Positions 11,248 through 56,845 of a stretch of 64,000 nt of DNA are shown in pieces. The notes beneath the pieces are model-generated. The model did not search any database, was not told the origin of the DNA, and saw nothing but the letters and a program-made list of their open reading frames with translations. The stretch's first letter is position 1; every line of letters starts with the position of its first letter. This stretch comes from an uncultured Thermoleophilaceae bacterium (GTDB lineage Bacteria > Actinomycetota > Thermoleophilia > Solirubrobacterales > Thermoleophilaceae), in assembly GCA_963825475.1 (NCBI GenBank), contig CAWGTC010000001.1, positions 315,742 through 379,741 of the forward strand, read 5' to 3'. The position numbers and the translations under genes were made by a program.

Positions 11248-11250
11248 ATC

Positions 11251-11428: not shown

Positions 11429-11448
11429 CTCCACGCCGTCGCGTGGAG
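11429..11448 (+). terminator. Stem-loop immediately after the precursor genes (8-bp stem ctccacgc/gcgtggag, 4-nt loop)
   Basis: Perfect inverted repeat 14 nt after the A2 stop. There is no U-tract, so it is more likely an attenuator or stabiliser than a full terminator. Confidence 0.35.
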
Positions 11449-12088: not shown

Positions 12089-12110
12089 GGGCGGCAGGTA
12101 TCCTCCCCAC

Positions 12111-13787: not shown

Positions 13788-13788
13788 G

Positions 13789-15684: not shown

Positions 15685-15736
15685 CGAGGAGAGGATACGT
15701 CGAGGAGTCAGGAAGCTGAATGTAAGGTGCGCTCCC

Positions 15737-16486: not shown

Positions 16487-16488
16487 AA

Positions 16489-17548: not shown

Positions 17549-17566
17549 TCGCCGCAGCGCCGATAC

Positions 17567-26402: not shown

Positions 26403-26572
26403 CTTGCCTAGATCTGGATACAGCACGCGCGCTCCCCGGTCCATGCGACCGTATCGGGTCCGCGGCGAGGTGGCTTTAAGCCGAGGGCCGGAACGGGCGC
26501 TCCGGCCCGGTCCGCTCATCGCCGTTGGAGGCGGCGGCTATACGGTACTGCCGCGCTTCGCGCCCTTCACCC

Positions 26573-29646: not shown

Positions 29647-29777
29647 GCTGCGCTACCACTGCGATACTGGCGGCGGTGAGGACGAGGCGCAACCGGACCG
29701 GGCAACTCGGCCTGAATGTGGCGCCGCGAGAGACGATCCTCCCCGAGGTTGCGCTCGGACCGAGCCGCTCGATTCCC

Positions 29778-30649: not shown

Positions 30650-30651
30650 CG

Positions 30652-32124
30652 ATGGCGACAGCGTCTGGCGTCCCCACTACGGGTCGCCGCGCCAAGGCGG
30701 CCCGGGGAACGGTCATCAACTCCGCGTTCCTGATCGGCCTGAACGCGCTCGCGCTGATCAAGGGCTTCGCTGTGGCCGGTTTCATCACGGTCTCCGACTA
30801 CGGAGTCTGGGGGCTCTTGGTCGTCGCGTTCACCTCGCTGTATGGGCTAGTGCAGATCGGCGTGAACGACAAGTACATCCAGCAGGACGCCGAAGATCAG
30901 GAGCACGCATTCCAGCAGGCGTTCACGCTCCAGCTCGCCTTGAGCTTGTTCTTCGTGGCGCTCATGGTCGTGATGATGCCGGTCTATGCGCTGGCCTATG
31001 GCAACTGGGAGATTCTGCTCCCGGGCTGGGCGCTGGCGCTCGCCATGCCCGCTAGCGCGTTTCAGGCACCGCTGTGGACCTTCTACAGGCGGATGGACTA
31101 CCTGAAGCAGCGGCGCCTTCAAGTGATCGACCCGGTCTTGAGCATCGTTGTGACACTCGGACTGGCTGCCGCAGGATTCGGCTACTGGTCGTTCGTAATT
31201 GGGACGATCTGCGGAAGTTGGGCCGCGGCAGTCATGGCGATACGGGCTTCTCCCTACAAACTCGCCCTCCGGTACGAGTCAGGCACTGTGCGCGAGTACG
31301 CGCGCTTCTCGGGCCCGTTGATGTTCCAGGGCGCCTGCGTGGCTGTGATCCAGTTCGTGCCGGTACTCACTGCCCAGCGCACGCTTGGAACCGCCGCCGT
31401 AGGTGCGATGGCGATCGCCAGCAACATCTCGAGGTACACGCTCAAGGTCGACCAGATCATCACGGGGACGCTCTATCCGGTGGTTTGTGCGGTCAAGGAC
31501 CGCCGGGACCTACTGCAAGAGGCGTTCCTGAAGTCGAATCGGCTGGGGCTGCTCTGGGCCGGCCCCACGGGCGTAGGCATCTTTTTGTTCGCGCCCGACC
31601 TGGTGCAGTTCGTGATCGGCTCTCAATGGCAAGAGGCCATCCCGATCATCCAGTCGCTCGGCATAGTCGCGGTGATCAACCAGATCGGCTTCAACTGGAC
31701 CGCCTTCTACCGGGCGATTGGCGATACGCGCCCGATCGCCGTGGGCGGTCTGGCCATGGCCTTGGGCGTAACGGGACTTGCCGTGCCGCTTCTCCTTGCC
31801 GAGGGACTCCAGGGGTACGCGGTTGGCATGGGCCTCGCGGCAACTGTCCTCCTCGCGGTCCGGATGGTCTATCTCCGACGCCTCTTTTCGCTCAGGCCGA
31901 TAGTCGGGAACGTCGCTCGGGGGCTCCTCCCGGTGGCGGTTGCGTTTACCGTCACAGGGGCCGCCCGGCTGCTTCTCTGGGGCGGCGAACGCGCGGAGGT
32001 TCAGGCCTGTCTTGAATTTGCCTTATTCGTGGCCATCGCGGGCGCCTTTACGGTGATCTCGGCACGCAGTCTGCTGGTCGAGTTCCGGGGCTACCTTCAG
32101 CGCCCGTCGGCCACGCCTGCCTAG
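30652..32124 (+). CDS. Polysaccharide flippase (Wzx / MOP superfamily)
   Basis: ATG 30652 lies 2 nt after the preceding stop. About 12-14 TM segments. The N-terminus TVINSAFLIGLNALALIKGF is typical of oligosaccharide flippases. Confidence 0.75.
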   Translation: MATASGVPTTGRRAKAARGTVINSAFLIGLNALALIKGFAVAGFITVSDYGVWGLLVVAFTSLYGLVQIGVNDKYIQQDAEDQEHAFQQAFTLQLALSLFFVALMVVMMPVYALAYGNWEILLPGWALALAMPASAFQAPLWTFYRRMDYLKQRRLQVIDPVLSIVVTLGLAAAGFGYWSFVIGTICGSWAAAVMAIRASPYKLALRYESGTVREYARFSGPLMFQGACVAVIQFVPVLTAQRTLGTAAVGAMAIASNISRYTLKVDQIITGTLYPVVCAVKDRRDLLQEAFLKSNRLGLLWAGPTGVGIFLFAPDLVQFVIGSQWQEAIPIIQSLGIVAVINQIGFNWTAFYRAIGDTRPIAVGGLAMALGVTGLAVPLLLAEGLQGYAVGMGLAATVLLAVRMVYLRRLFSLRPIVGNVARGLLPVAVAFTVTGAARLLLWGGERAEVQACLEFALFVAIAGAFTVISARSLLVEFRGYLQRPSATPA

Positions 32125-40946: not shown

Positions 40947-42041
40947 TCACCGAAACCGTTCGTAGGGATCCGCGTAGTCCCTGCTCAGGAGATCGAAATC
41001 CTCAAGCATCTCAAGCACCTCCTCCGTGGTGCGACACACAGGCCCCGGAGCCTCGGCCTCGAGGTCGAAGTAGAACCCCCGGACACCGTCGCGGTACTCC
41101 TCGAGGTCGTACGTGAAGAACACGATCGGCTTACCGGTGACGGCGAAGTCGAACATGGCTGACGAGTAATCGGTTATCAGCACGTCGGCGGCGAGGTAGA
41201 GGTCCCGGATGTCGGGATGGTCGGAGACGTTCCTCCCGACGGCCCCGAGGGCATTCCCGAGCTTGGACGCCAGCAGGTAGTGAAGTCGCAGGAGCAGAAG
41301 ATGGCTGTCACCCAGCTGCGCCGCCATGCGCTCGACGTCGAGCGTGAGCGAGAAACCGAGCCGACCATCGCGGTCCACCAGGTTGTCGCGCCACGTCGGG
41401 GCGTAGAGCACGGCCCGAACGTCGTCGGCGATCCCCAGCTCTGCCCGCACCCGCTGCCGGACTTCGGCGGCGTCCGGAGCGCTGAGGATGTCGTTCCGCG
41501 GGTAGCCGGTCTCGAGGATCTCGCCGTCGAAGCGAAACGCGCGGCGGAAGATCTCCGTGCTGAACGAGTTTTGCGAAACAAGGAAGTCCCACTTCTCGAA
41601 GTCCCTTGCCATCCGGTCGAGTCCCGAGCGGTTTTCCTTCCAGCGCGGGTTGTCGAACCCGATCCGCTTTAGCGGTGTGCCGTGCCAGGTCTGCAGATAT
41701 GTGGTGCCGTTCCGTCTCCTGAAGTTCCTCGGCATAGGAATGTTGGACACGACCTGACCGGCGCTTCCGACCTGGCGCAGGTACGGGAGGCTGTACGGCT
41801 CCACCGCGGTCACCCCGGCAGGCGCCTGGCGACCGGGGGAGGTGATCCAGACGGGCTCGTGCGGCGTGTTCCGCCGCGTGAGCTCTTCGTAGATCGCGCG
41901 GGGGTTGTCAGAGAACGCTCCGTTGAAGCTGTTGTAGAGGACCCGCCGCACCCGGGGCTTCCCAAGCGTCTGCAACGCCGGGGCGGCGGCTGCACGGGCG
42001 AGCCGCGATAGAAACGCGCCAGCTGGAGGGGCGCTAGGCAT
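40947..42041 (-). CDS. CDP-glycerol glycerophosphotransferase (TagB/TagF family), second copy
   Basis: LYNSFNGAFSDNPRAIYEEL, YLQTWHGTPLKRIGFDN, LYAPTWRDN and LITDYSSAMFDFAVTGKPIVFFTYDLEEYRD. It starts 3 nt after the stop of the nucleotidyltransferase gene. Confidence 0.8.
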   Translation of the reverse strand: MPSAPPAGAFLSRLARAAAAPALQTLGKPRVRRVLYNSFNGAFSDNPRAIYEELTRRNTPHEPVWITSPGRQAPAGVTAVEPYSLPYLRQVGSAGQVVSNIPMPRNFRRRNGTTYLQTWHGTPLKRIGFDNPRWKENRSGLDRMARDFEKWDFLVSQNSFSTEIFRRAFRFDGEILETGYPRNDILSAPDAAEVRQRVRAELGIADDVRAVLYAPTWRDNLVDRDGRLGFSLTLDVERMAAQLGDSHLLLLRLHYLLASKLGNALGAVGRNVSDHPDIRDLYLAADVLITDYSSAMFDFAVTGKPIVFFTYDLEEYRDGVRGFYFDLEAEAPGPVCRTTEEVLEMLEDFDLLSRDYADPYERFR

Positions 42042-42044: not shown

Positions 42045-43244
42045 TCATCCCCGTCCGCGCGCGATGACACTGGCCGGCGCCCACGCGTAACGGCCGACAA
42101 CCCTGATCGCGTGGCTGAGCCGGGCTGAAGTCATACGGGTTCGCGAGCCGCCGCGCAGCTCGGGCCGGCGCTCAAGCAGCACCTGGTCCGGGGGGAAGAT
42201 TCGGCGGCGGGCAAACGCACGGAGACCCCCTGAGGGGCTGAGGAGGCCGTCGACAAGCGAAATCTCAGCGCGGACCTGTTGGCGCGATCCCTCGCGCCAC
42301 GGATTGGCGAGTCGCACGGCTGCTCGCTCGCGACGGGCGAGCGGCCGGGCGGGGGCGATCAGAGAGCCGCGGGCAAGCCCCGCCATGGTTTCGGCATGCT
42401 CGGCGGCGGCGGCAAGCGCAGGGGCCAGTTCAGGATGACGCCCGGCGACCGTTCGGACCCCGGCCGCAGTCTCCCCTGGTCGACCCAGCGACGCCCACCA
42501 GGCCGCGACGTCGACCGTCTGCCGCAGCCCCGCAAAGCCGTCCCGCGCGAGGAACAACAGCAGGAAGGACAGTTCGTCCGTGGGGAGCAGCCGCCGCGAA
42601 CCGTCTTCGTTGATGGTTGCGCGGTCCAGAGCCGCCTGAGCGAAAGTCGACTCATACCAATGCACGCGCCAGTGCAGCTCGAGCGGGGGCAGGTCCGGGT
42701 GGTCCAGCACGCGGTGGAGCTCGGGCAGGCCGTCGATAGGTCGCGACCAGTCTGGCTCTGTCCAGCCGAGCCCTCCGGCGAGATCGACTGCTCGATCGAG
42801 CCCAGCGCCGGGAACCAGCAGATCGATGTCGGAAGACTGGCGCGCCCCGAAGTTGCCGTAGATGGAGTCGGCAAGCGCCGTCCCCTTGAGTGCAACTACC
42901 GCAAGCCCGTCCGCCTCGAGCGTGCGCGCCAGCCGCCCCGTAAGCGCGTGCTGGATCATCCCGCGGTGGCGAGCGATCATTCGGGCGCCGCCGAGCCACT
43001 CAGCGAGTGGCTCGGTCAGCTCGATAGCCGGATCGTCGAGAAGTCGCCCGCCTAGCGTCGTGATCATCCGCTGGGCCGCAAGCAGTCCGAGCACGCGTTC
43101 CAAATCGGCGACCGCCGCCAGCCTGTGGACCTCAGCAACCCGGTCGGGTGTCGGCTGAGCGACCGCGCGTATGAGGGCCACCACCAGCGCGTGCTCGGGT
43201 GTCACGGCCGCAGCGTACGCGCTCAGGAGGGCTGCGCGTCGCAA
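42045..43244 (-). CDS. NTP_transf_5-type uncharacterised nucleotidyltransferase
   Basis: 399 aa: ...VVALKGTALADSIYGNFGARQSSDIDLLVPGAGLDRAVDL..., a Pol-beta-like G[SN]...D.D signature as in the family co-occurring with HprK-like kinases. TTG start. Confidence 0.65.
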   Translation of the reverse strand: MRRAALLSAYAAAVTPEHALVVALIRAVAQPTPDRVAEVHRLAAVADLERVLGLLAAQRMITTLGGRLLDDPAIELTEPLAEWLGGARMIARHRGMIQHALTGRLARTLEADGLAVVALKGTALADSIYGNFGARQSSDIDLLVPGAGLDRAVDLAGGLGWTEPDWSRPIDGLPELHRVLDHPDLPPLELHWRVHWYESTFAQAALDRATINEDGSRRLLPTDELSFLLLFLARDGFAGLRQTVDVAAWWASLGRPGETAAGVRTVAGRHPELAPALAAAAEHAETMAGLARGSLIAPARPLARRERAAVRLANPWREGSRQQVRAEISLVDGLLSPSGGLRAFARRRIFPPDQVLLERRPELRGGSRTRMTSARLSHAIRVVGRYAWAPASVIARGRG

Positions 43245-43343
43245 TTCGGCTCCGGCGGCGGGATGACGAGGCCTACGTGACTGTCCGAACCTGCGCCGCT
43301 AGCGGGCCGTTGGGTGTACCGTGGGCTGCACAGGGAGCCCCGG

Positions 43344-43874
43344 ATGTCCTCTATCGACAACACGCCAGCTGCTCGGAAGGTGGTCTACGACCAGCCTCAG
43401 GTCCGAGACTACGGGTCCCTGGTCACGCTCACGGCGGATTTCGATGTGCACTTTGTCGGTTCAGTCGCGAAGATTGTGACGCTCGCCACCGTGAGTTCCC
43501 CGCTGGCCGTTGGCGGCGGCGCTACTGGCCCGGGCGGTGGTGGTGGCAGTGCGGGCAGCCTCGCGCCATCGAATCTGACTCCGGACACCGGAGGAGTGCT
43601 CTCCGACATCGCGCAAGCCGATGGCGTTCCCGAGGGCGGGACCGAAACTCCGGCCACGATTGACAACGGCACGGGGGTGCTTGCAGACGGCCCGGCTGGG
43701 GGCGGGGAGGCGGCCGGATCGGGCTCGATCGGCGGCGGCGCGGGCGCGGGCGGCGGCGGTGAGGGCGGGAGGCTCCCGTTCACCGGCTATGCGGCTGCGA
43801 CTGTTGCCGCGCTCGGAGCGGCCTTCACCGGCGCCGGCGTAGCGGTGCGCGCCCTGCTGCGCCGCCGCAGCTAG
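43344..43874 (+). CDS. Gly-rich LPXTG (LPFTG) surface-anchor protein with a lasso-leader-like N-terminus
   Basis: GGGAG lies 7 nt upstream of the ATG. Sequence: MSSIDNTPAARKVVYDQPQVRDYGSLVTLTADFDVHFVG..., then Gly-rich low complexity, then GGRLPFTGYAAATVAALGAAFTGAGVAVRALLRRRS*. The N-terminal 31 aa align with the leaders of A1 and A2. There is no classical Sec signal. Confidence 0.7.
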   Translation: MSSIDNTPAARKVVYDQPQVRDYGSLVTLTADFDVHFVGSVAKIVTLATVSSPLAVGGGATGPGGGGGSAGSLAPSNLTPDTGGVLSDIAQADGVPEGGTETPATIDNGTGVLADGPAGGGEAAGSGSIGGGAGAGGGGEGGRLPFTGYAAATVAALGAAFTGAGVAVRALLRRRS

Positions 43875-43892
43875 CAAGACCGGCAGGCGAGC

Positions 43893-44852
43893 GTGACGCG
43901 CGGTGAGTCGCCCGAGTGGCGGGGCAGTGCGTTCGGGCTGAGTCTCTCCGGCGCCTTCGTTGCGCCCGGGTTGGCAGGTGAGACGCGTTCGTCGAGTTCA
44001 GCGTTCGCGACCGAGCTGGCGTTGGTTGCTCGGGGAGATCTCGGCGAGGGATGGGCTCCGGTCGAGGTCGAGCTGCTCTACGAGCAGGTGCTTCCCAATG
44101 GCAGATTTGCGATCCGCCGCCACCCGGAGCGTGGCTACCGACTGGAGCACACGTACTACGGACAGTTCTGGGTCGCGACGGACGGGGCCCGAATCTCGTG
44201 TGCTCCCGAGGATTTGCCGAACTGGCTGTGGCAGCGCTTCCTGGTTGGCCAGGTGCTGCCGCTGGCGTCACTGTTGCAGGAGTACGAGGTGCTTCATGGC
44301 AGCGCAGCTGCGATCGACGGGTCTGCCGTGCTGGTGATGGGCGCCAGCGGGGCCGGGAAATCTTCCGTGTGCCTGCACCTGGTGGCCGGCGGCGCGACGT
44401 TCCTCACCGACGACGTGGCTGCCCTGGAGCTACGCGACGGGGCCGTCCTGACGCATCCGGGTCCGGGGTTGGCGAGCCTCGACGAAGACGAGCTCGCACG
44501 CCTGCCACCCGAGCAGACGGGAGCCTGGGAACGGCTCGGGGTTTCCGACGGGGAGGTCCGACTCATGGTGACCGGCGCCGGACACCAGGCTCTTCCGGTC
44601 GCCGCGATCTACCTTCTCACCCATCGCCCCGAAGCTCGCCGGCTCGAGATCGTCGCTACGGCGGCGGCTTGGCCCGAGGCTCTGCTGGGCGGCACGTTCA
44701 ATGCCTACCTGCGGGATGCGGGGCGTCTGGTGCGCCAGCTGGAGGTGGCGGGTCGTCTCGCGGAGACAGTGCCCTTGCGAGAGGTGACGGTGCCCGAGGG
44801 TGTGGGGGCGGGCGCTGTGGCCGACGCCATCGCCTCCTCGTTCAGGCCCTGA
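43893..44852 (+). CDS. HPr kinase-like P-loop kinase, second copy
   Basis: 319 aa. LVMGASGAGKSSVCLHLVAGGATFLTDDVAALELRDGAVLTHPGPGLASL aligns with 12400-13353 (GLVAPSGTGKSSTACNLIAHGGSFFADDVLALDLVDGRVRAHPGPRLVSV). Confidence 0.8.
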   Translation: MTRGESPEWRGSAFGLSLSGAFVAPGLAGETRSSSSAFATELALVARGDLGEGWAPVEVELLYEQVLPNGRFAIRRHPERGYRLEHTYYGQFWVATDGARISCAPEDLPNWLWQRFLVGQVLPLASLLQEYEVLHGSAAAIDGSAVLVMGASGAGKSSVCLHLVAGGATFLTDDVAALELRDGAVLTHPGPGLASLDEDELARLPPEQTGAWERLGVSDGEVRLMVTGAGHQALPVAAIYLLTHRPEARRLEIVATAAAWPEALLGGTFNAYLRDAGRLVRQLEVAGRLAETVPLREVTVPEGVGAGAVADAIASSFRP

Positions 44853-44985
44853 TCAGCGCCAGGACCTCGTCCCGCTTCTCGCCCATGTGCTCCTCCGATA
44901 CCTGCGATTCGAGGTTTGAGCCGCAGCAGCGGCTCGGTGTTGGAGGCACGCACGTTGAAGTGCCAGTCCTCGTAGTCCACCGACG
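44844..44985 (-). pseudogene. Duplicated 3'-end fragment of the phosphomannomutase gene (direct repeat of 46822-46962)
   Basis: About 141 bp with roughly 95% identity and one 1-nt indel. It encodes ...SVDYEDWHFNVRASNTEPLLRL, then goes out of frame. Confidence 0.85.
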
Positions 44986-45038
44986 CGCAGCTCATCGATG
45001 GCCATTGGGGCCGCAGTGTAGACCGCAACGCCCCCGCT

Positions 45039-45431
45039 TCAGCTCAGAGGCTCGTACGGATCCCGCAGCTCCGGAAACATCGGGAAGTGCTTTCGGTTGC
45101 GGGTCATGAGGTCCACGCCAAGGCGTTCGGCTGTAGCTGCGATCACGTAGTCGACCAGATCGATTCCCGGGTGGCTCCGCACGAACCGTGAAGCTAGAGC
45201 CCCGGCTCGCTCGCCGAGATCATCATCCACCTCCAGCCAGTCGATCGCTTCCATCAGCTTCCGCGTTCTCGGGCGCTCGTCCGGACGCATCCCGGCAAGG
45301 AGCTCCACTTTGGTCAGGACAGACGCTGACAGCCTCTCGCCGCCTGTTTCCAGGCCAGTGATGAGCTGGCGCGCGCGTTCATCGCCGCGGAGGTGGTCGA
45401 TCAACACGGATGTGTCGAGCAAAGCGGTCAC
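45039..45431 (-). CDS. vapC: PIN-domain toxin VapC
   Basis: 130 aa. LLDTSVLIDHLRG... carries the first acidic residue of the PIN fold, with further acidic residues downstream (MEAIDWLEVDDD, GIDLVDYVIAA). It overlaps the antitoxin gene by 4 nt. Confidence 0.85.
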   Translation of the reverse strand: MTALLDTSVLIDHLRGDERARQLITGLETGGERLSASVLTKVELLAGMRPDERPRTRKLMEAIDWLEVDDDLGERAGALASRFVRSHPGIDLVDYVIAATAERLGVDLMTRNRKHFPMFPELRDPYEPLS

Positions 45432-45679
45432 CGCTCGAGCCGCGCACCCAGGCCCGGGCGACGAATCCGCTCCACGTAGTGCTCGCCGTCGAAGTCACGG
45501 TCGGCCCAGGCGCCGAAGCTCTCCCCAAGAGCGGCGCTTCGCTCCGGGCCCTGCATGCGGTAGGTGGCCGAGAGCGATCGCCGCACGAGCTCGGCCAGCC
45601 CGAGCCCCGTCTTCTCCGACTCGCGCTTCAGCGTCTCATACTGCGCATCCGTGAGCGTGATCTGGGTCCGATGAGCCAT
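45428..45679 (-). CDS. vapB: Ribbon-helix-helix antitoxin (VapB-like)
   Basis: 83 aa. MAHRTQITLTDAQYETLKRESEKTGLGLAELVRRSL shows an RHH beta-strand plus two helices. Confidence 0.75.
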   Translation of the reverse strand: MAHRTQITLTDAQYETLKRESEKTGLGLAELVRRSLSATYRMQGPERSAALGESFGAWADRDFDGEHYVERIRRPGLGARLER

Positions 45680-45760: not shown

Positions 45761-46720
45761 TCAGGGTCGCGGAAGCCGGCGGGTGTCGACTACTTCGAAG
45801 TCGCTGCCCTGCACCTGGGTAAAGGAGTGCAGGTCGTCGTTGTCCCATCCGTCGGAGGGGGCGCCGGACACGTTCCAGGCTGAGCCGTTGTCGGCTACCA
45901 GCGCGCCGTAGCGCTTGAGAGCGCTGAGCACGACCTGAGACTGGGGCGGGTAGCCGGAGACGTCGAAGCTGGCCCGCAGTCTCACCCGTTGCCCCATCGC
46001 TGGCAGGTCGGGGTCGCGGGAGTGCGAGGCGAAGTGCCGCGCGGGGTAGATGAACGCTCGTCGTGTGCGCGGCACCGTTATTCGCAGCGCGTGATCGATG
46101 CGACCGCTGCGAACCTCGTCGTAGCGCACAAGCCCGGGCAGGATCGGAAGGCCGGCAGCGTCGGCGGAAGTCCAGAAACGCGGGCGCAGGCGGTTCGAGC
46201 GCAGGTTCCAGGTTGCTCCCGATCCGGCCCTCCAGCTGCGCCCGCCGTTTTGGGGGTAGGCCGCGTAGAGCTCGTACAGGCGGCAGCGATCGCGGTCGAC
46301 CACGATCAGGTGGCGGTCTCCCTCGGACGAACGTCCGCCCTGGATCGCCATGTTGGCGGGTATCGGGTAGGGGCCCGGGTCGGAACTGTGGTGGTATTTG
46401 AACCGCATCGGTACCCGCTTCTGGGTGCTTGACACCACGCGGTAGGGGATGCCGATTGGCTCTCCTTCGTAGAGCCCCGAGGCGAAGCCCGCGTGCGCGG
46501 GGGCCGACCGCCCGACCGCAGATACCATCGCCGCCGAGCGAGGATGCAGCGGCAGCTGGTCAACCCGCATATTCCAATGGCTGCTGGCCGGGAAAATGGG
46601 GCAGTTCGGCGCGCCGGGCAACCTGGGCGTGCGACCCTCGCCGGCCCCGCCGGGGACGCCGGCCAACACGAGCGGCACTGCGGCGAGTGCCGCGAGGGCG
46701 GCGGGGACGGCCCAGCGCAT
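45761..46720 (-). CDS. Secreted protein of unknown function (paralogue of 25380-26402)
   Basis: 319 aa with signal peptide MRWAVPAALAALAAVPLVLAG. It shares central blocks with the 25380 protein. Confidence 0.6.
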   Translation of the reverse strand: MRWAVPAALAALAAVPLVLAGVPGGAGEGRTPRLPGAPNCPIFPASSHWNMRVDQLPLHPRSAAMVSAVGRSAPAHAGFASGLYEGEPIGIPYRVVSSTQKRVPMRFKYHHSSDPGPYPIPANMAIQGGRSSEGDRHLIVVDRDRCRLYELYAAYPQNGGRSWRAGSGATWNLRSNRLRPRFWTSADAAGLPILPGLVRYDEVRSGRIDHALRITVPRTRRAFIYPARHFASHSRDPDLPAMGQRVRLRASFDVSGYPPQSQVVLSALKRYGALVADNGSAWNVSGAPSDGWDNDDLHSFTQVQGSDFEVVDTRRLPRP

Positions 46721-46819: not shown

Positions 46820-48199
46820 CTAGGCCCTGATCAGCGCCAATACCTCGTCCCGCTTCTCGCCCATGTGCTCCTCCGATACCAGCGACTCGAGGTTGAGCCG
46901 CAGCAGCGGCTCGGTGTTGGAGGCGCGCACGTTGAAGTGCCAGTCCTCGTAGTCCACCGACACGCCGTCCAGGTGGCTGACCTCTCCGTCGGAGTACCGC
47001 GAGGCGATCTCCTCCATCTTGGCGTCCGAGTCGCTCACCTCGGAGTTGATCTCCCCGGAGATGAAGTAGCGCGCCAGCAGGGGCGCCAGCAGCTCGCTCA
47101 TCTTCGCCCCCTTCGCCGAGAGCAGCTCGAGAATCAGCAGCGCGGGCAGCGTGCCCGAGTCGGCGCAGTAGAAGTCGCGGAAGTAGTAGTGCCCCGACAC
47201 CTCGCCGCCGAACGCCGCTCCCTCCTCGCGCATCCGCGCCTTGAAGAACGCGTGGCCCACGCGGTTCACGTGGGCGCTGCCGCCCGCCGCTTCGACCAGG
47301 TCGCGAACGGCGCGTGACGCTCGTACGTCGTACAGGATCGCTGCGCCCGGCTCCTTGGCCAGGATCGACTGCGCCAGCAGGGCGGTGAGGAAGTCGCCGT
47401 CAACGAACCGGCCGGTGTCGTCGATGAAGAAGCAGCGGTCGGCGTCGCCGTCCCAGGCGATGCCGAGGTCGGCCCTCTCGGAGAGCACCTTGTCGATGAT
47501 GAAGCGGCGGTTCTCCTCCAGCAGCGGGTTGGGCTCGTGGTCGGGGAACTCGCCGTCGGGCTCCCAGTAGAGCTTGACCTGGTCGAGGCCGAGCATGTCG
47601 AGGATCGACCCGCACGTCGGGCCGGCCATGCCGTTGCCACCGTCGAGCACGACCTTCATCGGCTGGATCGAGGACTGGTCGATGAAGGCCAGCGCGTCCT
47701 CCCGAAAGGGCTCGCCCACGTCTTCCGTCTCGGTGCCACCAACGGGCTCGGCAGCCGGGCCGGGCTCGCCGGCCGTCATGATCTCGCGCAGCTCGCCGAT
47801 CCCCGAGTCGCCGGAGAGGGGGAGGGCGCCGCGGCCCACCAGCTTCGCGCCCGTGTAGGCCTTGGGGTTGTGAGAGGCGGTGCACATCAGCCCGCCGTCG
47901 AGGCCGCGCGACCCCACGGTCCAGTAGAGCATCTCGGTGCCCACCATCCCGATGTCGAGCACGTGCGCGCCCTCGTCACGCATGCCGGCCACGTAGCGCT
48001 CGGACAGCGACTCGGCCTGGAGGCGCATGTCACGCCCAATCGCCAGCCGCAGCTCGGTGGCGGCCGTCGCATACATGTCGGCCAGCACGAGCGCGAAGGC
48101 GCGGCCGAGGCGGTAGGCCACGTGCTCGTCGATCTGCTCGCCGTAGAGGCCGCGCACGTCGTACGCCTTGAAAATGGATTGATCGATGGTGGTGGGCAC
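46820..48199 (-). CDS. Phosphomannomutase/phosphoglucomutase
   Basis: The start is trimmed to GTG 48199 (VPTTIDQSIFKAYDVRG). The active-site loop is CTASHNPKAYTG, the metal loop is WDGDADRCFF and the sugar loop is GGEVSGHYYF. Confidence 0.9.
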   Translation of the reverse strand: MPTTIDQSIFKAYDVRGLYGEQIDEHVAYRLGRAFALVLADMYATAATELRLAIGRDMRLQAESLSERYVAGMRDEGAHVLDIGMVGTEMLYWTVGSRGLDGGLMCTASHNPKAYTGAKLVGRGALPLSGDSGIGELREIMTAGEPGPAAEPVGGTETEDVGEPFREDALAFIDQSSIQPMKVVLDGGNGMAGPTCGSILDMLGLDQVKLYWEPDGEFPDHEPNPLLEENRRFIIDKVLSERADLGIAWDGDADRCFFIDDTGRFVDGDFLTALLAQSILAKEPGAAILYDVRASRAVRDLVEAAGGSAHVNRVGHAFFKARMREEGAAFGGEVSGHYYFRDFYCADSGTLPALLILELLSAKGAKMSELLAPLLARYFISGEINSEVSDSDAKMEEIASRYSDGEVSHLDGVSVDYEDWHFNVRASNTEPLLRLNLESLVSEEHMGEKRDEVLALIRA

Positions 48200-48248: not shown

Positions 48249-48954
48249 TTGGCGGTCTCGATCGTGCTGCCGGCCTTCAACGAGGAGGCCAACGTGGCGC
48301 AGGCGGTGGCCGAGGCTACGAGCACCGCCGAGCGCCTGTTCGCCGACCACGAGGTGATCGTGGTCGACGACGGCTCGCACGACCGGACCGCCTCGATCGT
48401 TCGCGAGATCGCCTCGCGCGACCCCCGCGTGCGCGTGATCAGCCACGGCCGCAACCGCGGGTATGGCGAGGCGCTGCGCACCGGGCTTCCTCGCCAGCCG
48501 CCTCAACTACGTCTTCTTCACCGACGCGGATCTGCAGTTCGACCTCGACGAGCTCGAACGCTTCCTGCCCTATGTGGGCACGGTCGACGTGGTGGCCGGC
48601 TACCGGATCAACCGCCAGGACTCCCTCTCGCGGAGGGCGATGGCCCACGCCTGGAACGTGCTGGTGCGGATGCTCTTCTACGTGCCGGTGCGCGACATCG
48701 ACTGCGCCTTCAAGCTCTTCGAGCGGCGGGTGCTGAGCGATGTGGACATCGAGTCGGTGGGAGCGATGGTGAACACCGAGCTGATGGTGAAGCTGGGCCG
48801 CCGGGGGGCGAGCGTGGTGGAGGTGGGCGTGCACCACCGGCCGCGGCGAGCGGGCGAAGCCCGCGGGGCCAATCCCCAGGTGATCGCCACCGCGTTCCGG
48901 GAGGTCGTGCGGATGCGACGACGACTGGCCGCTCTCGACAGCCGCAACCTGTGA
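48249..48954 (+). pseudogene. Polyprenol-phosphate glycosyltransferase (GT2, DPM1/GtrB-like), 1-nt frameshift at 48483-48485
   Basis: Frame 0 reads SIVLPAFNEEANV...VIVVDDGSHDRT...NRGYGEALRTG. Frame 1 (track ORF 48463..48954) reads FLASRLNYVFFTDADLQFD...VAGYRINRQDS...DIDCAFKLFERR. The junction is accGGGcttc, where accggcttc is expected. Confidence 0.75.
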
Positions 48955-49841
48955 GCGCGACCTGCGCGGCCTGCGGGGCCGCTTCGCTCGAGCCGCACCT
49001 GACCGTGGCCCGAGACGAGGGCGCCAGCCTGGTGGCCACCACCACCGCCTACGGCACGGCGCCCGCCGACCTGGTGCGGTGCACCGTGTGCGGCCATGCG
49101 CAGGTGGCCGAGTTCCCCGCCGAGGCGGCGCTGGCGGAGGCCTACGGCGAGGTCGACGAGGGCGCATACCTCGAGGAGGAGACCGGCCAGCGCGCCACGG
49201 CGCGGCGGGCGCTCGACCGCATCGAGCGCCACGTGGGCACCGGAAAGCTGTGCGATCTGGGCTGTTGGGTGGGCTTCCTGGTGTCCGAGGCCGAGCGGCG
49301 GGGGTGGGAAGCGCAGGGGGTGGAGCCCTCGGAGTTCGCCTCCCGGTTCGCGCGCGAGCGCCTGGGCCTGCGGGTGCAACAGGGCACCCTCGAGTCCGCC
49401 GGCCTGCCCGAGGGCCACTTCGACGCTCTCGTCCTGGGCGACGTGATCGAGCACCTGCCCGATCCCGGCCGGGCGCTGGAGCGGATGGGCGCGCTGCTGG
49501 CGCCGCGCGGTGTGGTGTACCTGGCGCTGCCCGACGCCGGCAGCCGGGTGGCGCGAGCGCTGGGGGCTCGCTGGTGGTCGGTGCTGCCCACCCACGTCCA
49601 GTACTTCACCCGCCCCAGCATCTCGCGGCTGCTCGACCGCCACGGCTTCACCGTCGAGTGGATGAGCACCGCGCCGAAGGCCTTCAGCGTGCGCTACTAC
49701 GCCGAGCGGCTCGAGGGCTACTCGCCGCCCGTGGCGAGAGCGGCGGCGGGCGCGACCGTGCGCCTGGGCGTGGCCGACCGACTGGTGTGGCCGGACTTCC
49801 GCGACCGGATGGCCCTCGTGGCGCGGCGGCGCGAGTCTTGA
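48951..49841 (+). CDS. Class I SAM-dependent methyltransferase with N-terminal Cys4 zinc ribbon
   Basis: GTG 48951 overlaps the GT2 stop. CAACG...CTVCGH, then LCDLGCWVGFLVSEAERRGWEAQGVEPS. It is a paralogue of 62667-63578. Confidence 0.75.
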   Translation: MSATCAACGAASLEPHLTVARDEGASLVATTTAYGTAPADLVRCTVCGHAQVAEFPAEAALAEAYGEVDEGAYLEEETGQRATARRALDRIERHVGTGKLCDLGCWVGFLVSEAERRGWEAQGVEPSEFASRFARERLGLRVQQGTLESAGLPEGHFDALVLGDVIEHLPDPGRALERMGALLAPRGVVYLALPDAGSRVARALGARWWSVLPTHVQYFTRPSISRLLDRHGFTVEWMSTAPKAFSVRYYAERLEGYSPPVARAAAGATVRLGVADRLVWPDFRDRMALVARRRES

Positions 49842-52410: not shown

Positions 52411-54480
52411 ATGCCCGTCGACGAATACGTGGGCGGCCTGGTGTTGTTCGCGATCACCGCGGGATCGGCGCTCGGTACCGCCGCGTTGGTGGTGCGCCGG
52501 CGGCTGGTGCACCTGGCCGGAAGCGAGGCCGTCCTGGCCGGGGCCCTCGTGGCCAGCGCCGTGCTGATCGCGGAGCACCTGCTGCCCGGGCTCGTGGGAC
52601 TGCTGTCGCGCGCGAGCGCGGCCGTGTGCGCGCTCGCCATTCTCACTGCCGCGGCGGTGCTGCTGCCGCGGGCCGGTGCGGGCGGCGGCGAAACGGGGCC
52701 GCCCACCGCCCGGAGCGGGAGGCTCCCGTCGTGGGCGATGGCCGGCGTGGCTCTGGTCCTGCTCGCAAGCGCCACGGCCGCCGCCGTCTGGTCGAGCTCG
52801 GTCACGGCGTCCACGGACGTGGACACGCTCACCTTCCACCTGCCCAACATCGCCCGGTGGATCCAGACGGGCACGTTCTGGCGGGTCGACCAGTTCACGC
52901 CGCTGCTGGCCAACGGCAACTACCCGCACAACGGCGACGTGATCTTCCTCGCCGCGGTTCTGCCTTGGGACAGCGACGCTTTCGTCCGCGCCCTCGGCGT
53001 GCCCTTCGTGGCGGTGGCGGGCCTCTCCGTCTACGCCATCGCCGTGCGCCTCGGCTCGGCGCGCGCCACGGCGGCCCTGTTCGCCACCCTCTTCGCCTCG
53101 ATCCCCATCGTGTCCTACGCCAGCCACGAGGGCGCGAAGACCGATCCGGTGATGCTGGCGTGCTTCGGCGCGGGCCTGCTCTTCATGCTGCGCCACCTCG
53201 AGTCGCGGCGGATGTCGGACCTCGTGCTCGCGGGCCTGGGGCTGGGCCTGGCCTTCGGCACCAAGTGGTACGGGGTGTCGAGCGTGGCGGCCGTCGGCGC
53301 CCTGTGGATCGCCCTGTGGCTGTGGGACCGGCGCCCGACAGGCGAGCTGTTGCGCAGCGCCGGTGTGCTGGCCGGGGTGGGCGCGCTGGCCGGAGGCTTC
53401 TGGCTGCTGCGCAACTGGGTCGAGTCCGGCAACCCGGTGGCTCCCACCCGGGTGGCTGCGGGCGGGCTCGAGATCTTCGATGCCCCGACGGACTTCGTAC
53501 GCGAGTGCGGCGGCTACACGGTGGCCCACTACGTGACCGATCCCGGCATCTGGCGGGAGTACATCCTGCCCGCCTACCGGGTCACGTACGGGCTGCCGGG
53601 CCTGTTGCTCGTGGCCGGCTGGGTACTTGGCGTTGCCGCGCTGGCGCGGGGACGCTCGCCTGTGCCCCGGGCACCGCTGTTCCTTGCCCTTGCGGCGGTG
53701 CTCCTGGCCGTCGTGTACTCCATCACTCCCTACAGCGCGCTGGGCCTCGAGGGCCAGCCCGCCGGAGTCGGGGCCAACACCCGCTGGCTTCTGCCCGCCT
53801 TCCTCGTGGCCGCCCCCCTCGCGGCCTGGGCGGCCACGCAACTGCCCAGGGTCCGGCTGCTGCTCGAACTGGCCGCGGTGGTGGCGGTTGCGGACGGGGT
53901 GCGCCGCGGGTTCTCGGACCCGGCCGGCGAGGTGGCAGTGGCCGGCCTCGCGCTCGCGGCTGCGGCGGGCGCGGTGCGAGCGCTCCGCATGCTCCTGCGC
54001 CGGGCCGGCACGCCCGACCGGGCGGCCTGGGCCGTTGTGGGCGCGGTGGTGGTGGCGGCGCTCGCCGTGGTGGGCCACCAGCGCCAGCAGACCTTCTACG
54101 ACGAGCGCTACCGGGTCACCGATCCCGTGGCGGCCTGGTTCGCCGAACGGGCGCCGACTGATCGCCGCGTGGCCCTGGCCGGCGTGTGGGGCACTCAGGT
54201 GATCTCGCCCGTGCTGCCGGCCTTCGGACCACGGCTCGGCAACGAGGTGGCCTTCGCGGGCGAATACGTGCGGGGACAGCTGCGCGAGTATGAGCGCCGG
54301 TCGGAGTTCCTGGGCGCCGTGGACCGCGGCGGCTACGACCTGCTGGTGGTGGGCCGCGACGGCTACGGCGAGTGCCAGGTGCCGGGGCGAGAGGGCGACG
54401 AGGACGCGTGGGTCCAGGGGGCCGGCTACGAGAAGCTGGCCGAGAGCCGGTATCTCACCCTGTACAGGGTCCCGGCTTAG
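52411..54480 (+). CDS. Integral membrane GT-C-like glycosyltransferase (ArnT/PMT-like) with C-terminal soluble domain
   Basis: 689 aa. It starts immediately after the previous stop. Multiple TM segments are followed by a roughly 150-aa C-terminal domain. Confidence 0.5.
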   Translation: MPVDEYVGGLVLFAITAGSALGTAALVVRRRLVHLAGSEAVLAGALVASAVLIAEHLLPGLVGLLSRASAAVCALAILTAAAVLLPRAGAGGGETGPPTARSGRLPSWAMAGVALVLLASATAAAVWSSSVTASTDVDTLTFHLPNIARWIQTGTFWRVDQFTPLLANGNYPHNGDVIFLAAVLPWDSDAFVRALGVPFVAVAGLSVYAIAVRLGSARATAALFATLFASIPIVSYASHEGAKTDPVMLACFGAGLLFMLRHLESRRMSDLVLAGLGLGLAFGTKWYGVSSVAAVGALWIALWLWDRRPTGELLRSAGVLAGVGALAGGFWLLRNWVESGNPVAPTRVAAGGLEIFDAPTDFVRECGGYTVAHYVTDPGIWREYILPAYRVTYGLPGLLLVAGWVLGVAALARGRSPVPRAPLFLALAAVLLAVVYSITPYSALGLEGQPAGVGANTRWLLPAFLVAAPLAAWAATQLPRVRLLLELAAVVAVADGVRRGFSDPAGEVAVAGLALAAAAGAVRALRMLLRRAGTPDRAAWAVVGAVVVAALAVVGHQRQQTFYDERYRVTDPVAAWFAERAPTDRRVALAGVWGTQVISPVLPAFGPRLGNEVAFAGEYVRGQLREYERRSEFLGAVDRGGYDLLVVGRDGYGECQVPGREGDEDAWVQGAGYEKLAESRYLTLYRVPA

Positions 54481-55472
54481 AGCCAGCCACGCATGCGGAA
54501 GAAGCCGAGCATGCTGGCGAGCAGCACCACCATCGCGGCGACGATCGCCCAGAAGGCCGCGGTGCCGCCCTCGCCGGGAACGCCGACGTTCATCCCCCAG
54601 ATGCTGGCGATCAGCGTGAGGGGCAGGATCACCACGCTGAAGGCGGTGAGCACCCGCAGCACGTCGTTCACCCGGTGCGCGAGCACGGACTCGTTGGTGT
54701 CCTCGAGCGCCTCGATCACCTCCTTGTAGTTCTCGAGCATGTCCCAGATGCGCTCGGAGGCGTCGACGATGTCGTCGAAGTAGATGTCGATGTCCTCCGC
54801 CATGTAGCGCTGCTTGGTGCGCTCGAGATCGCGCAGCACCGGCCGCTGCGGGCGGATGATCTTGCGGAAGTTGATGATCTCCTGCTTGGCGTTGGAGATG
54901 TCGCGCACGACCTCCTCCGAGCGCCCCAGGAAGATGTCCTCCTCGATCCGCTCGAGCTTGTTGCCCATCTTGCGCAGCATCGGGAAGCAGTAGTCGAACG
55001 AGTCGTCGACGATCTTGTAGAGCAGGTAGCCGGGTCCCTTGGAGAGCAGGGCGTCGCGCATCTCCTCCGACGCGCTGCAGCGCTCGAACAGGTAGTCCAC
55101 CGGCGGAATCGGCCGGTTGGGCAGCGTGATCAGGAAGTCCGGCCCGACGAAGATGTCCAGCTCGGCCGCGTTGAGCCGGCCCACCGCCTTGTCGAATACC
55201 GGGAAGTGGAGGACGATGAACAGGTAGTCGTCGTACTCGTCGATCTTCGGGCGCTGGTTGCGCGAGGTCACGTCCTCGTAGTCGAGGGGATGGAACTCGA
55301 AGTGCTCCTCGAGCCATGCGCGGTCGATAGGGCCGGGCCGCTCGATGTTGATCCACCGGAGGCCGTGGGCCTCGATGGTCTCTACGTTGGGCTCAGGAGC
55401 GGCGTGAGCGGGATCCGCGTCGGACCCGACGCGCGGGCCCTTGCGAAGGCGTGGACGTGGAATGCTCGGCAT
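54477..55472 (-). CDS. corA: CorA-family magnesium/cobalt transporter
   Basis: 331 aa with two C-terminal TM helices and the GMN signature (LIASIWGMNVGVPGEG). Confidence 0.9.
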   Translation of the reverse strand: MPSIPRPRLRKGPRVGSDADPAHAAPEPNVETIEAHGLRWINIERPGPIDRAWLEEHFEFHPLDYEDVTSRNQRPKIDEYDDYLFIVLHFPVFDKAVGRLNAAELDIFVGPDFLITLPNRPIPPVDYLFERCSASEEMRDALLSKGPGYLLYKIVDDSFDYCFPMLRKMGNKLERIEEDIFLGRSEEVVRDISNAKQEIINFRKIIRPQRPVLRDLERTKQRYMAEDIDIYFDDIVDASERIWDMLENYKEVIEALEDTNESVLAHRVNDVLRVLTAFSVVILPLTLIASIWGMNVGVPGEGGTAAFWAIVAAMVVLLASMLGFFRMRGWL

Positions 55473-55513
55473 CGGCTATCAGCGGGTCGTCGTCGGGCTC
55501 CTGCATCACCCTC

Positions 55514-56845
55514 ATGGTACTTCGACGCCGCGGCTTTCTCTCCCGCCTCCGGTCGCCGGTAGTGTGGCCCTCCGTGCGGCGCAAGGTGCTGGCGGTGGCG
55601 GTGATCCTGGTCGTGGCCCTGGCGGCACGGCTGCTCGTGGTGGCGGCTACGCCGGACTACGCGCCCGGGACCGATCCCGCGGATCTCGACCGGATCGCCA
55701 TCTCGATCTCTGAGGGCGACGGGTTTCCGGACAGCAGCGTGGCGCCCGGGCCCACGGCGCTGCGGCCGCCGCTTTTTCCCACGTTTCTCGCGGCGGTCTA
55801 CAAGGCCACCGGCCGGCGCTACACCGCGGGCCGCATCGCGCAGGCGGTCCTGGGAGTCCTCACGGTAGCCCTGCTCGGTCTGCTGGCGCTGCGCCTGTGG
55901 GGCACGCGGGCGGCTCTCGCGGCGATGGCGCTGGCGGCGGTGTACCCGCCGTTCCTCGTTCTGTCCGGCTCGCTGCTAACGGAGAACCTGTTCCTGCCGC
56001 TGGTGCTGGCGGCACTGCTGGCTGCGCTGCGGGCCGGGGAGGACAGGGCGGGGCGCCTGCGCTGGGCGTTCGCGGCCGGGGGGCTGGCGGGCCTGGCGGT
56101 GCTCACCCGCGCCAACGGCGCGCTCGTGCTCATACCCCTCGTGTTGGCGGTCTGGGGTGTCCCGCGGCTGTCGCGGCGCGCTCTCGCCGCTCCCGCCGCG
56201 GTGGTGGTCGCCGCCGTGCTCACCGTTGCGCCCTGGACCGTGCGCAACGCGGTGGTGTTCGACGCCATCGTGCCGGTGAGCACCCAGGCGGGCTTCACCG
56301 CCGCCGGCACCTACAACGACTACACGCGATCGCAGGACGAGTACCCGGGGGCGTGGCGCCCACCAACCCTGGACGCCGAGCTCGGGCCGTTGTTCTCGTC
56401 GGGCCTCGACGAGGCCGAGCTGGAGTCGCGGCTCTCCGGGGAGGCGATCTCCTACGCCCTCGACCACCCGGGCTACGTGGCCCGGGCCGCCTTCTGGAAC
56501 GCCATGCGCATGTTCCATCTCGGCGGCTGGGAGTACGACCGGGCGATCGCCGGGGACCGCGGCGGGCCCGAGCTGCCCGTAGCCGGCTTCATCGCCTTCT
56601 ATGTCGTCGTCGCGCTCGCCCTCGCAGGCGCGCTCACGCCGGAGGCCCGCCGAGCTCCGCGATGGCTCTGGCTGACACCTGCCCTGTTCGGCTCGGTCGT
56701 GCTGATCGCGGGCTTCGTGCGCTACCGCGCCCCGATCGACCTGTTCATCTTGCTGCTCGCGTCGCTCGCCGTGGCGCGGCTCGGCGGGCGGCTAAGACCT
56801 CGTGGCAGCGACGAGGTAGTGCGGGTAGGGCCCGAAGCGGTGTAG
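55514..56845 (+). CDS. GT-C membrane glycosyltransferase (ArnT / dolichyl-phosphate-mannose-protein mannosyltransferase family)
   Basis: The start is trimmed to ATG 55514. The loop AATPDYAPGTDPADLDRIAISISEGDGF after TM1, PPLFPTFLAAVY and about 11 TM segments are typical of the GT39/GT83-like family. Confidence 0.65.
   Translation: MVLRRRGFLSRLRSPVVWPSVRRKVLAVAVILVVALAARLLVVAATPDYAPGTDPADLDRIAISISEGDGFPDSSVAPGPTALRPPLFPTFLAAVYKATGRRYTAGRIAQAVLGVLTVALLGLLALRLWGTRAALAAMALAAVYPPFLVLSGSLLTENLFLPLVLAALLAALRAGEDRAGRLRWAFAAGGLAGLAVLTRANGALVLIPLVLAVWGVPRLSRRALAAPAAVVVAAVLTVAPWTVRNAVVFDAIVPVSTQAGFTAAGTYNDYTRSQDEYPGAWRPPTLDAELGPLFSSGLDEAELESRLSGEAISYALDHPGYVARAAFWNAMRMFHLGGWEYDRAIAGDRGGPELPVAGFIAFYVVVALALAGALTPEARRAPRWLWLTPALFGSVVLIAGFVRYRAPIDLFILLLASLAVARLGGRLRPRGSDEVVRVGPEAV

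Follow-up and report, generated by a model that had tools for sequence, protein, structure and literature searches.

This report concerns a protein of 176 aa encoded within a 64,000-nucleotide stretch of DNA from an uncultured Thermoleophilaceae bacterium (contig CAWGTC010000001.1 of assembly GCA_963825475.1, positions 315,742 to 379,741; hereafter the window). Sequence comparison identifies the N-terminus of this protein as a lasso-type leader, homologous to the leaders of two lasso peptide precursors, A1 and A2, encoded 31 kb upstream, and its C-terminus carries an LPFTG sorting-type signal. The protein belongs to a family, recognized here by profile searches and previously undescribed, in which a lasso leader is fused to a 'core' that cannot be cyclised. 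Its gene is followed by that of an HprK-like kinase (kin2) and diverges from that of an NTP_transf_5 nucleotidyltransferase. We favour, with moderate confidence, the reading that the product is the leader-guided substrate of a cyclase-less, lasso-derived tailoring set and is later displayed in the cell envelope. It appears that enzymes known from the synthesis of small peptide antibiotics have been put to a new use here, the modification of a protein on the cell surface.

The leader-bearing protein and its family

The open reading frame (ORF) and the parts of its product are as follows, in window coordinates:

43344-43874, plus strand: ORF of the LPFTG protein of 176 aa, which bears the leader and is proposed as substrate or 'precursor protein', with an AGGGAG Shine-Dalgarno sequence 6 nt upstream
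43386-43436, plus strand: lasso-type leader motif, residues 15-31 (YDQPQVRDYGSLVTLTA), with Y at -17, P at -14, V at -12, G at -8, T at -2 and A at -1 (regular expression and hidden Markov model)
43452-43511, plus strand: conserved hydrophobic block, residues 37-56 (FVGSVAKIVTLATVSSPLAV) (Kyte-Doolittle hydropathy and alignments)
43512-43772, plus strand: variable low-complexity spacer, Gly-rich in the window protein
43773-43871, plus strand: C-terminal sorting-type signal, comprising LPFTG (residues 144-148), a hydrophobic stretch and an RRRS tail

The segment YDQPQVRDYGSLVTLTA fits the lasso leader consensus YxxPxLx3Gx5Tx in exact register, with Val/Ile at position -12. The leader of precursor A1 (YDLPRLVDYGRLQDVTA) has an identical register, and that of A2 (YDTSPSITDYGDLAAITA) shows the same motif but with a one-residue insertion relative to the consensus. 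A hidden Markov model (HMM) was built from six bona fide leaders only, namely those of A1 and A2 and of cyclase-adjacent precursors in the loci L001, L002 and L007. Against 2,502 ORFs, this model matched all nine small ORFs of the window and of L001 to L008 with E = 6e-7 to 3e-4 (E = 1.7e-5 for the 176-aa protein), and the best ORF from outside the family reached E = 7.8. The NCBIfam model NF033521 (lasso_leader_L3) was the top match for both the 176-aa protein and the genuine A1, with 14.3 and 15.4 bits, respectively, both below its 19-bit cutoff.

The remainder of the protein does not resemble a lasso core. Following the Thr-Ala junction, the core starts with DFDVHFVGS, which places Ser at core position 9, where every precursor found next to a cyclase has Asp. 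As the acidic ring acceptor is missing, the protein cannot become a lasso peptide. Its core of 145 aa is also not the short core of a lasso precursor, which measures about 15-30 aa. The cyclase of the window is encoded 32 kb away from the gene, and none was found in L004, L005, L006, L008 or L009. Cyclisation of the protein in trans was considered separately and ruled out, there being no acidic residue at core positions 7-9.

The C-terminus reads LPFTG-YAAATVAALGAAFTGAGVAV-RALLRRRS, that is, an LPXTG-type motif followed by a hydrophobic segment and a positively charged tail, as in sortase substrates. Six-frame translation showed it to be the sole LPFTG-type signal in the window. No Pfam or NCBIfam family matched the 176-aa protein, and no curated anchor model matched its C-terminus at E <= 1 in the NCBIfam scan. 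With a 19-residue Kyte-Doolittle window, hydropathy was 1.2-1.9 for the C-terminal anchor and 1.3-1.8 for the hydrophobic block in most members of the family (1.06 in the divergent member P0007). The block, at about 1.5 in the window protein, is possibly an internal signal or anchor, or an amphipathic segment. A median of 9 residues stands ahead of the leader Tyr in the family.

The size of the family became apparent only with an exhaustive profile search: with a threshold of E <= 1e-3 it returned at least 366 representative clusters, and with one of E <= 1e-10 there were 140. A word-indexed search had given only 7 relatives, and back-translated pattern scans of genomes and of metagenomes, a method insensitive for so low-complexity a family, one locus each. 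Architecture and motifs were counted in 152 representatives among the clusters. In 135 of these, the leader motif occurred together with a C-terminal signal of L[PA]xTG type, and the HMM built from true lasso leaders matched 127 at E < 1e-3. Conservation within the leader was high (Y-17 98%, P-14 100%, V/I-12 95%, D-10 87%, G-8 100%, L-6 93%, T-2 99%). The anchor motif was likewise uniform, with LPFTG in 137 representatives, LAFTG in 5 and LPFSG in 4, and the last 12 residues held a mean of 4.7 Lys/Arg.

Lack of the ring acceptor is general: Asp occupies core position 9 in only 3/135 members. That position is mostly Ser/Ala/Gly, position 7 mostly Gly/Val/Ala and position 8 mostly Gly/Ala/Val. 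Spacers measure 74 aa in the median, with 37% Gly and 17% Ser+Thr; that of the L005 member consists of PIDP repeats instead. The last residue varies (Arg in 47 representatives, Ser in 20, Gly in 20, Asp in 15; Ser in the window protein), and because it is not conserved, the paeninodin rule of phosphorylation at a C-terminal Ser is not applicable to the family. Column conservation of Ser and Thr picked out Thr(-2) only, position -7 being Ser/Thr/Asp. One entry, P0182, is a merged gene call of small protein and kinase.

The family is in no Pfam or NCBIfam model, and no member is named in any public source queried. An earlier interpretation of this DNA, made from the letters alone (the sequence-only reading), was aware of no described system in which RiPP-type tailoring enzymes act on an LPXTG protein; neither the literature nor the curated models that we searched gave a description of a protein that combines a lasso leader with a sorting signal.

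Partner enzymes and gene neighbourhoods

The genes that surround the one for the 176-aa protein (hereafter, with its homologues, the small gene) are as follows:

43893-44852, plus strand: kin2, a P-loop kinase of HprK/PEPCK fold belonging to a distinct clade, 18 nt after the stop of the small gene (Pfam, NCBIfam, predicted model and fold search)
43245-43343: 99-bp divergent intergenic region between the NTP_transf_5 gene and the small gene
42045-43244, minus strand: PsmN-like NTP_transf_5 nucleotidyltransferase, divergent from the small gene (Pfam)
40947-42041, minus strand: TagF/TarF-like CDP-glycerol glycerophosphotransferase, 3 nt downstream of the NTP_transf_5 gene (Glyphos_transf)

These ORF coordinates and the spacings of 3 nt, 99 bp and 18 nt had been given in the sequence-only reading and were reproduced throughout. 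HMM searches also bore out the three enzyme families that it named. For kin2, the match to Hpr_kinase_C (E = 7e-8, 32.6 bits) was slightly below Pfam's cutoff of 33.3 bits, and the fold supported it: the AlphaFold model, with a pLDDT (predicted local distance difference test) of 92.7, resembled HprK/P and PEPCK structures in a fold search. The catalytic residues H135, G153-x-G155-K156 and D173-D174 were invariant in 31 sequences. The structural match, together with the invariant His, GxGK[ST] and DD motifs, secures the assignment of kin2 as a kinase. Its proposed paralogy with the lasso-cluster kinase 31 kb upstream (12400-13353) was confirmed at 34.5% identity over 304 aa (E = 7e-37). Identities are 46-57% inside the kin2 clade and 28-35% to the kinases of lasso operons. 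In NCBIfam, kin2 scored 32.5 bits against TIGR04352 (curated cutoff 200), 22.2 against TIGR04355 (200) and 16.9 against TIGR04249 (125). As these scores are far under the cutoffs, kin2 is no member of the HPr-rel-A or ScmC families; a precomputed annotation labels it Pfam PF27840 'ScmC'.

The nucleotidyltransferase matched NTP_transf_5 with E = 9e-28 and 98 bits. Its residues D139 and D141, which form a metal-binding DxD motif, were invariant in 50 sequences, and its model (pLDDT 92.5) resembled MenT1 and ANT(2'')-Ia. The TagF-like enzyme is, by its profile match, a member of the Glyphos_transf family (E = 2e-96, 323 bits), and it scored 276 bits against the TarF equivalog, whose cutoff is 550, and far lower against TarL and TarB. 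A second TagF paralogue, 51% identical to it, is encoded at 26525-27697 on the plus strand within the glycopolymer locus of the window. In the divergent region, a promoter and terminator scan returned no sigma-70 consensus and no terminator, the consensus being uninformative for a high-GC actinobacterium.

Gene neighbourhoods were compared between the window and 12 other loci that hold a family member. A kinase of the kin2 clade lay directly 3' of the small gene in the window and in seven other loci (L001, L004, L005, L006, L007 and the Joint Genome Institute (JGI) contigs RC5lGk4m and NvY2GbCV). A PqqD gene stands between the two in L008, and a kin2-clade kinase was present after the small gene wherever the clade was sampled. 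From this distribution the clade appears to be dedicated to the small protein. An NTP_transf_5 gene accompanied the small gene in the window and eight other loci, being divergent from or adjoining it in the window, L005, L008, L009, L011 and NvY2GbCV, and a few genes away in L001, L004 and L006. When three NTP_transf_5 orthologues were picked blindly from long contigs, two (L009 and L011) had a divergent family member next door. The sequence-only reading had allowed that homologues of the kinase and nucleotidyltransferase might never co-occur elsewhere with the small gene; this does not hold, since both accompany it across loci.

Two loci are particularly informative. The L008 operon consists of genes for NTP_transf_5, the small protein, PqqD, the kinase and B2, and L009 has the kinase, PqqD, B2, an ATP-binding cassette (ABC) exporter, the small protein and NTP_transf_5. 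Neither contains a cyclase, and in each the small protein is the only leader-bearing ORF. L008, L009 and L011 carry, in cis with the small gene, a PqqD gene orthologous to that of the window's lasso operon, and L008 and L009 carry B2 there as well. In L001 and L007, by comparison, the small gene and kin2 directly abut the lasso ABC exporter; the exporter of L001 is 87-88% identical to that of the window, and the gene order of L007 equals that of the window. The module had been described as an orphan without cyclase, PqqD or B2. All three are indeed missing from the module of the window, but 'orphan' misleads: PqqD and B2 are available there in trans, the module abuts the lasso operon in L001 and L007, and in L008 and L009 it has a PqqD and a B2 of its own.

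Wherever enough sequence was available (the window, L004, L005, L006, L008, L009, L011 and NvY2GbCV), the module lay inside a glycopolymer locus with Wzx, Wzy, GT4, GT2, WecG and Bac_transf genes. Flanking genes common to the loci were those for phosphomannomutase (PMM), CorA, ThrC, DAGK and Lactamase_B. The PMM of the window is 78-81% identical to those of L004, a Solirubrobacterales metagenome-assembled genome (MAG), and L006, and the NTP_transf_5 homologues carry Solirubrobacteraceae names.

Two further observations were made in these loci. A conserved protein without a Pfam family (378-466 aa as called, 54-71% identical) is encoded in L004 (3561-4961), L006 (4286-5422), L009 (9180-10349) and L011 (9184-10341), where it adjoins Wzy_C or NTP_transf_5; the window has no homologue. 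A HEAT_2-repeat protein, also absent from the window, is encoded next to the module or the lasso operon in L001 (10285-11277), L004 (11297-12514), L006 (11017-12006), L008 (5582-6646), L010 (15667-16704) and L011 (6197-7360).

Proposed leader-guided tailoring and its alternatives

HprK-like kinases of lasso clusters act on linear, leader-bearing precursors (PMC9266682). For one of them, BsfK, the leader is required, the B1 RiPP recognition element (RRE; RiPP, a peptide made by the ribosome and modified after its translation) is stimulatory, and the target is a Ser that is not C-terminal (PMC10368454). PsmN, an NTP_transf_5 enzyme for which an ANT(2'')/MenT-like fold was reported (PMC6993621), adds a hexose to the phosphate that the kinase has installed (PMC6993621, PMC9266682). 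Taken with the anatomy of the family, these precedents make cyclase-less, leader-guided tailoring the most economical reading.

In such a pathway, a PqqD-type RRE would first bind the leader in the cytoplasm; some genomes encode it in cis, and in the window it would be supplied by the lasso operon, 31 kb upstream. The kinase kin2 would then phosphorylate a Ser or Thr of the small protein at a site other than the C-terminus. The PsmN-like NTP_transf_5 enzyme would extend this phosphate with a sugar or similar group, or conceivably, given the nearby TagF and CDP-alditol genes, with a CDP-alditol-derived group. The B2 protease, supplied in trans by the lasso operon in the window, would cut the leader off after the invariant Thr(-2)-Ala(-1). 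Finally, the protein would be inserted or exported and retained in the envelope through its C-terminal signal, by sortase linkage to peptidoglycan or as a plain membrane anchor, and would sit there amid the adjacent Wzx/Wzy glycopolymer. We infer all five steps; what was observed directly is how the protein is built, its homology to lasso leaders, how many clusters the family has, the conserved partnership of genes and the catalytic motifs, which are intact. The sequence-only reading is supported in part: its central idea, tailoring of the LPFTG protein by enzymes of RiPP type, gains a much firmer footing from the leader in register and from the co-occurrence of kin2 and NTP_transf_5.

The module was compared with four kinds of known system. 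It shares with the tailoring sets of phosphorylated and glycosylated lasso peptides (paeninodin PadeK/ThcoK, pseudomycoidin PsmK and PsmN, Bradymonas BsfK/BsfB1) the H, GxGKS and DD motifs of an HprK-like kinase, an NTP_transf_5 partner with DxD and a YxxPx(L/V/I)x3Gx5Tx leader on the substrate, with PqqD and B2 in cis at some family loci. It differs in that the substrate is a protein of about 130-200 aa rather than a lasso core of about 20 aa, and that this substrate has no Asp/Glu ring acceptor; with no cyclase in L008 and L009, no lasso can be made there. Nor is a C-terminal Ser, the acceptor of the paeninodin type, conserved in the family, whereas A1 and A2 do end in Ser. The substrate ends instead in a sortase-type signal, and the module is embedded in wall-glycopolymer loci. 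The system works like phosphorylated and glycosylated lasso tailoring but falls outside the lasso class by its acceptor position, its core size and its lack of a cyclase.

With LPXTG sortase substrates of Gram-positive bacteria the family has in common the C-terminal L[PA]xTG, some 20 hydrophobic residues and a Lys/Arg-rich tail, as well as a low-complexity 'wall-spanning' spacer ahead of the motif. It departs from them in having a lasso leader and a weakly hydrophobic block instead of a canonical N-terminal Sec signal, in the x position, which is almost always Phe, and in having no sortase encoded nearby. There is also no functional passenger domain, the whole protein being leader, spacer and anchor. 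The HPr-rel-A (TIGR04352 HprK_rel_A, TIGR04353 PqqD_rel_X) and SynChlorMet (ScmC/ScmD) systems likewise occur outside classical lasso clusters and combine a kinase like HprK with a peptide chaperone of the PqqD family, although their models match kin2 weakly, far below cutoffs. Both systems are bioinformatically defined and uncharacterised; to our knowledge no substrates are known for HPr-rel-A or ScmC, and no leader-bearing LPXTG partner has been described for HPr-rel-A or SynChlorMet. Finally, the TagF/TarF enzymes of wall teichoic acid synthesis share a strong Glyphos_transf domain with the module's enzyme, and a CDP-alditol pair and TagA/WecG-type genes occur in the same super-locus, but this enzyme falls below the equivalog cutoffs and is linked inconsistently to the module.

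The leaders of RiPPs and the elements that recognize them are seen as serving the production of small peptides that diffuse. In this family the same leader, its register exact and its Thr(-2), which is critical for processing, kept at 99%, heads hundreds of envelope-targeted, non-cyclisable proteins that have a kinase clade of their own. If the proposed tailoring is true, lasso-type enzymes accept proteins as well as peptides as substrates, and a natural-product pathway has been co-opted for construction of the cell envelope. For the NTP_transf_5 and HprK-like 'orphan' kinase families, which are large and enigmatic, a concrete and testable substrate would become available, and programs for genome mining would need adjusting where they label such loci 'lasso clusters' or drop them as cyclase-less.

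A more specific version is that of a new class of leader-guided, modified surface proteins, in which cyclase-free lasso machinery, made up of an RRE, an HprK-like kinase, a PsmN-like transferase and the B2 peptidase, equips a Gly-rich protein with a sugar or alditol-phosphate in phospho-linkage, and the protein is fixed covalently to peptidoglycan via LPFTG. We put this forward tentatively, as possible rather than probable. The cytidylyltransferase and Fe-ADH_2 pair found here and in L007, and the TagF gene, make alditol-phosphate decoration possible, and it is not the form that we favour. If this version is true, the LPFTG protein might be a primer or anchor for the Wzx/Wzy/TagF glycopolymer or a membrane-to-wall tether, in effect a bacterial 'proteoglycan' made by RiPP logic.

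Several results weigh against the leader-guided tailoring that we favour. As to the substrate, column conservation revealed no conserved Ser/Thr acceptor after the leader, and a hydropathy-based inspection found no canonical N-terminal signal peptide in the 176-aa protein. A TLxTC search for sortases in the window and 11 fetched loci gave only spurious matches in the wrong frame. Since there is no canonical Sec signal and no sortase gene in the window or loci, the C-terminal motif alone speaks for wall anchoring. The sequence-only reading's description of a surface-anchored sortase protein consequently stands for the classic C-terminal signal and not for the signal peptide or the sortase gene.

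As to recognition, neither PqqD nor B2 was found within +/-10 kb in L004, L005 and L006, nor in the module of the window, and AlphaFold models with fold searches of the PDB (Protein Data Bank) gave no RRE-like domain in kin2 or NTP_transf_5. With no RRE in cis or built in, recognition of the leader at these loci is unexplained unless it occurs in trans. As to the partnership, NTP_transf_5 orthologues far outnumber kin2 and the small protein in the word-indexed search, and at the third blindly picked locus, L010, NTP_transf_5 abuts a lasso operon and there is no small gene. For these two reasons the enzyme may primarily serve the lasso peptide. All loci probably come from one order, Solirubrobacterales-like, and because they share this order and their flanking genes, the synteny is partly inherited and not fully independent evidence; protein identities of 40-60% and extensive rearrangement nonetheless argue for selection on the core of small gene, kin2 and NTP_transf_5. 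The case as a whole is built from sequence comparison and predicted models.

Three other explanations were weighed. The protein could be a leader-mimicking regulator or decoy, a membrane-tethered pseudo-precursor that titrates the lasso B1, B2 and kinase or recruits them to the membrane beside the ABC exporter, coupling or throttling lasso peptide production or giving immunity, and not a modified end product. A leader without a ring acceptor would suit this role, as would the full lasso cluster in the window and the placement of the small gene, which is beside and divergent from the ABC exporter gene in L001, L003 and L007 and beside precursor genes in L002. We consider it unlikely, however, as in L008 and L009 the protein is found together with PqqD, kinase and B2 although neither locus has a cyclase or a lasso precursor that it could regulate. 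No lasso genes lie within +/-10 kb of the module in L004, L005 and L006, and the separate conserved kinase clade and near-invariant LPFTG (137/152) would be hard to explain.

The cyclase-free loci, in which PqqD, kinase and B2 are retained and no ORF other than that of the small protein bears a leader, are also left unexplained if kin2 and NTP_transf_5 are redundant tailoring enzymes that act on A1 and A2 or on a wall glycopolymer, the small protein being a mere envelope-protein neighbour. The same applies to the lasso leader in perfect register and to the kin2 clade, which is distinct from the lasso-operon kinases and goes with the small gene in 8 sampled loci besides the window. We judge this explanation improbable, even though A1 and A2 end in Ser like known kinase substrates (PMC9266682), the module is always within glycopolymer loci, and both the arrangement in L010 and the greater number of NTP_transf_5 orthologues agree with it.

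Least convincing is decoration by TagF, an elaboration of the phospho or glycerophospho decoration that the sequence-only reading had suggested, in which (poly)glycerophosphate is primed on the kinase-installed phosphate and gives a protein-linked, teichoic-acid-like polymer on a sortase-anchored protein: it draws on the start of TagF 3 nt after NTP_transf_5, on the CDP-alditol supply pair that adjoins the lasso operon both here and in L007 and on the WecG/TagA-type and Bac_transf genes that flank the small gene in L001, L003, L004, L006, L009 and L011, but of about 9 informative loci only 3 have a TagF near the module (the window and, as orthologues, L005 at 66-67% and L009 at 76%), with none within 8-10 kb in L001, L004, L006, L008 and L011, and the 276-bit score is far from the 550-bit TarF cutoff. 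As the second paralogue sits inside the glycopolymer locus, both TagFs may simply build a lipid-linked wall polymer, and we know of no TagF that uses a protein acceptor.

Lasso cluster and glycopolymer locus of the window

The lasso cluster that the sequence-only reading had seen upstream of the module is real, with each of its genes identified. It and the genes that follow are arranged as below:

9153-15909, both strands: complete lasso cluster (C, A1, A2, LuxR, PqqD, kin1, B2, ABC), contiguous with the module in L001 and L007
9153-10997: lasso cyclase
11080-11247: precursor A1
11251-11415: precursor A2, with a LuxR-type regulator after the two precursors
12111-12413, plus strand: PqqD/B1 RRE of the lasso operon, candidate trans-acting leader binder (best NCBIfam match a lasso PqqD chaperone, sub-threshold)
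12400-13353: kin1, the lasso-cluster kinase
about 13350-13787, plus strand: B2 leader peptidase, candidate trans-acting protease cutting after T-A (lasso_biosyn_B2, 68 bits, cutoff 33)
13789-15909, minus strand: lasso ABC exporter
15737-17613, plus strand: IspD/TarI-like cytidylyltransferase and Fe-ADH_2 dehydrogenase of glycerol-1-phosphate-dehydrogenase type (Pfam)
17567-40875: locus for a cell-wall glycopolymer, of Wzx/Wzy type, which separates the lasso cluster from the module

The predicted cores of A1 and A2 begin NNGQPVFVD and NNNIPQFVD, with Asp9 as the acceptor, and end in DDDNLS. An Asn as the first core residue is, as far as we know, unusual among lasso peptides. The ABC exporter is split over several frames in L009 (4454-6324), as are the ABC exporter and the cyclase in L010 (9149-11035 and 13853-15670); these split genes are either decaying lasso clusters or indel errors in long-read MAG assemblies.

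The cytidylyltransferase and Fe-ADH_2 dehydrogenase probably supply CDP-alditol or CDP-glycerol, judging from their families. In L007 the same pair is located directly upstream of the cyclase, at 54-66% identity. An ORF of 541 aa on the minus strand at 15913-17538 was rejected as a gene because it is antisense to two real plus-strand genes. The glycopolymer locus contains four GT4 and four GT2 genes, Wzy_C (20860-22266), Wzx (30514-32124), the second TagF, methyltransferases and a sulfotransferase. The last is a Sulfotransfer_3 gene (29676-30578, plus strand), and a sulfotransferase-like gene also occurs near the module in L004 (12957-13889).

Downstream of the module, about 146 bp of the PMM 3' end is duplicated with 95-97% identity, at 44844-44988 and 46822-46965, the first copy being at the kin2 stop codon. 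The two copies bracket 1.98 kb that encode a PIN-domain toxin (45039-45431), an antitoxin-like small gene (45428-45679) and a family-less protein of 319 aa (45761-46720), and the segment looks like an insertion or rearrangement scar. An ORF of 530 aa (48249-49841, plus strand) joins a truncated GT2 N-terminus to a class-I methyltransferase domain through a long, out-of-frame-looking Arg/Gly-rich stretch, and may be a frameshift or two merged genes. Two GT-C glycosyltransferases of PMT/PMT_2 type, resembling protein O-mannosyltransferases and ArnT, are encoded on the plus strand at 52411-54480 and 55451-56845, next to CorA and a UbiA prenyltransferase, and could be relevant to glycosylation of the envelope or of proteins.

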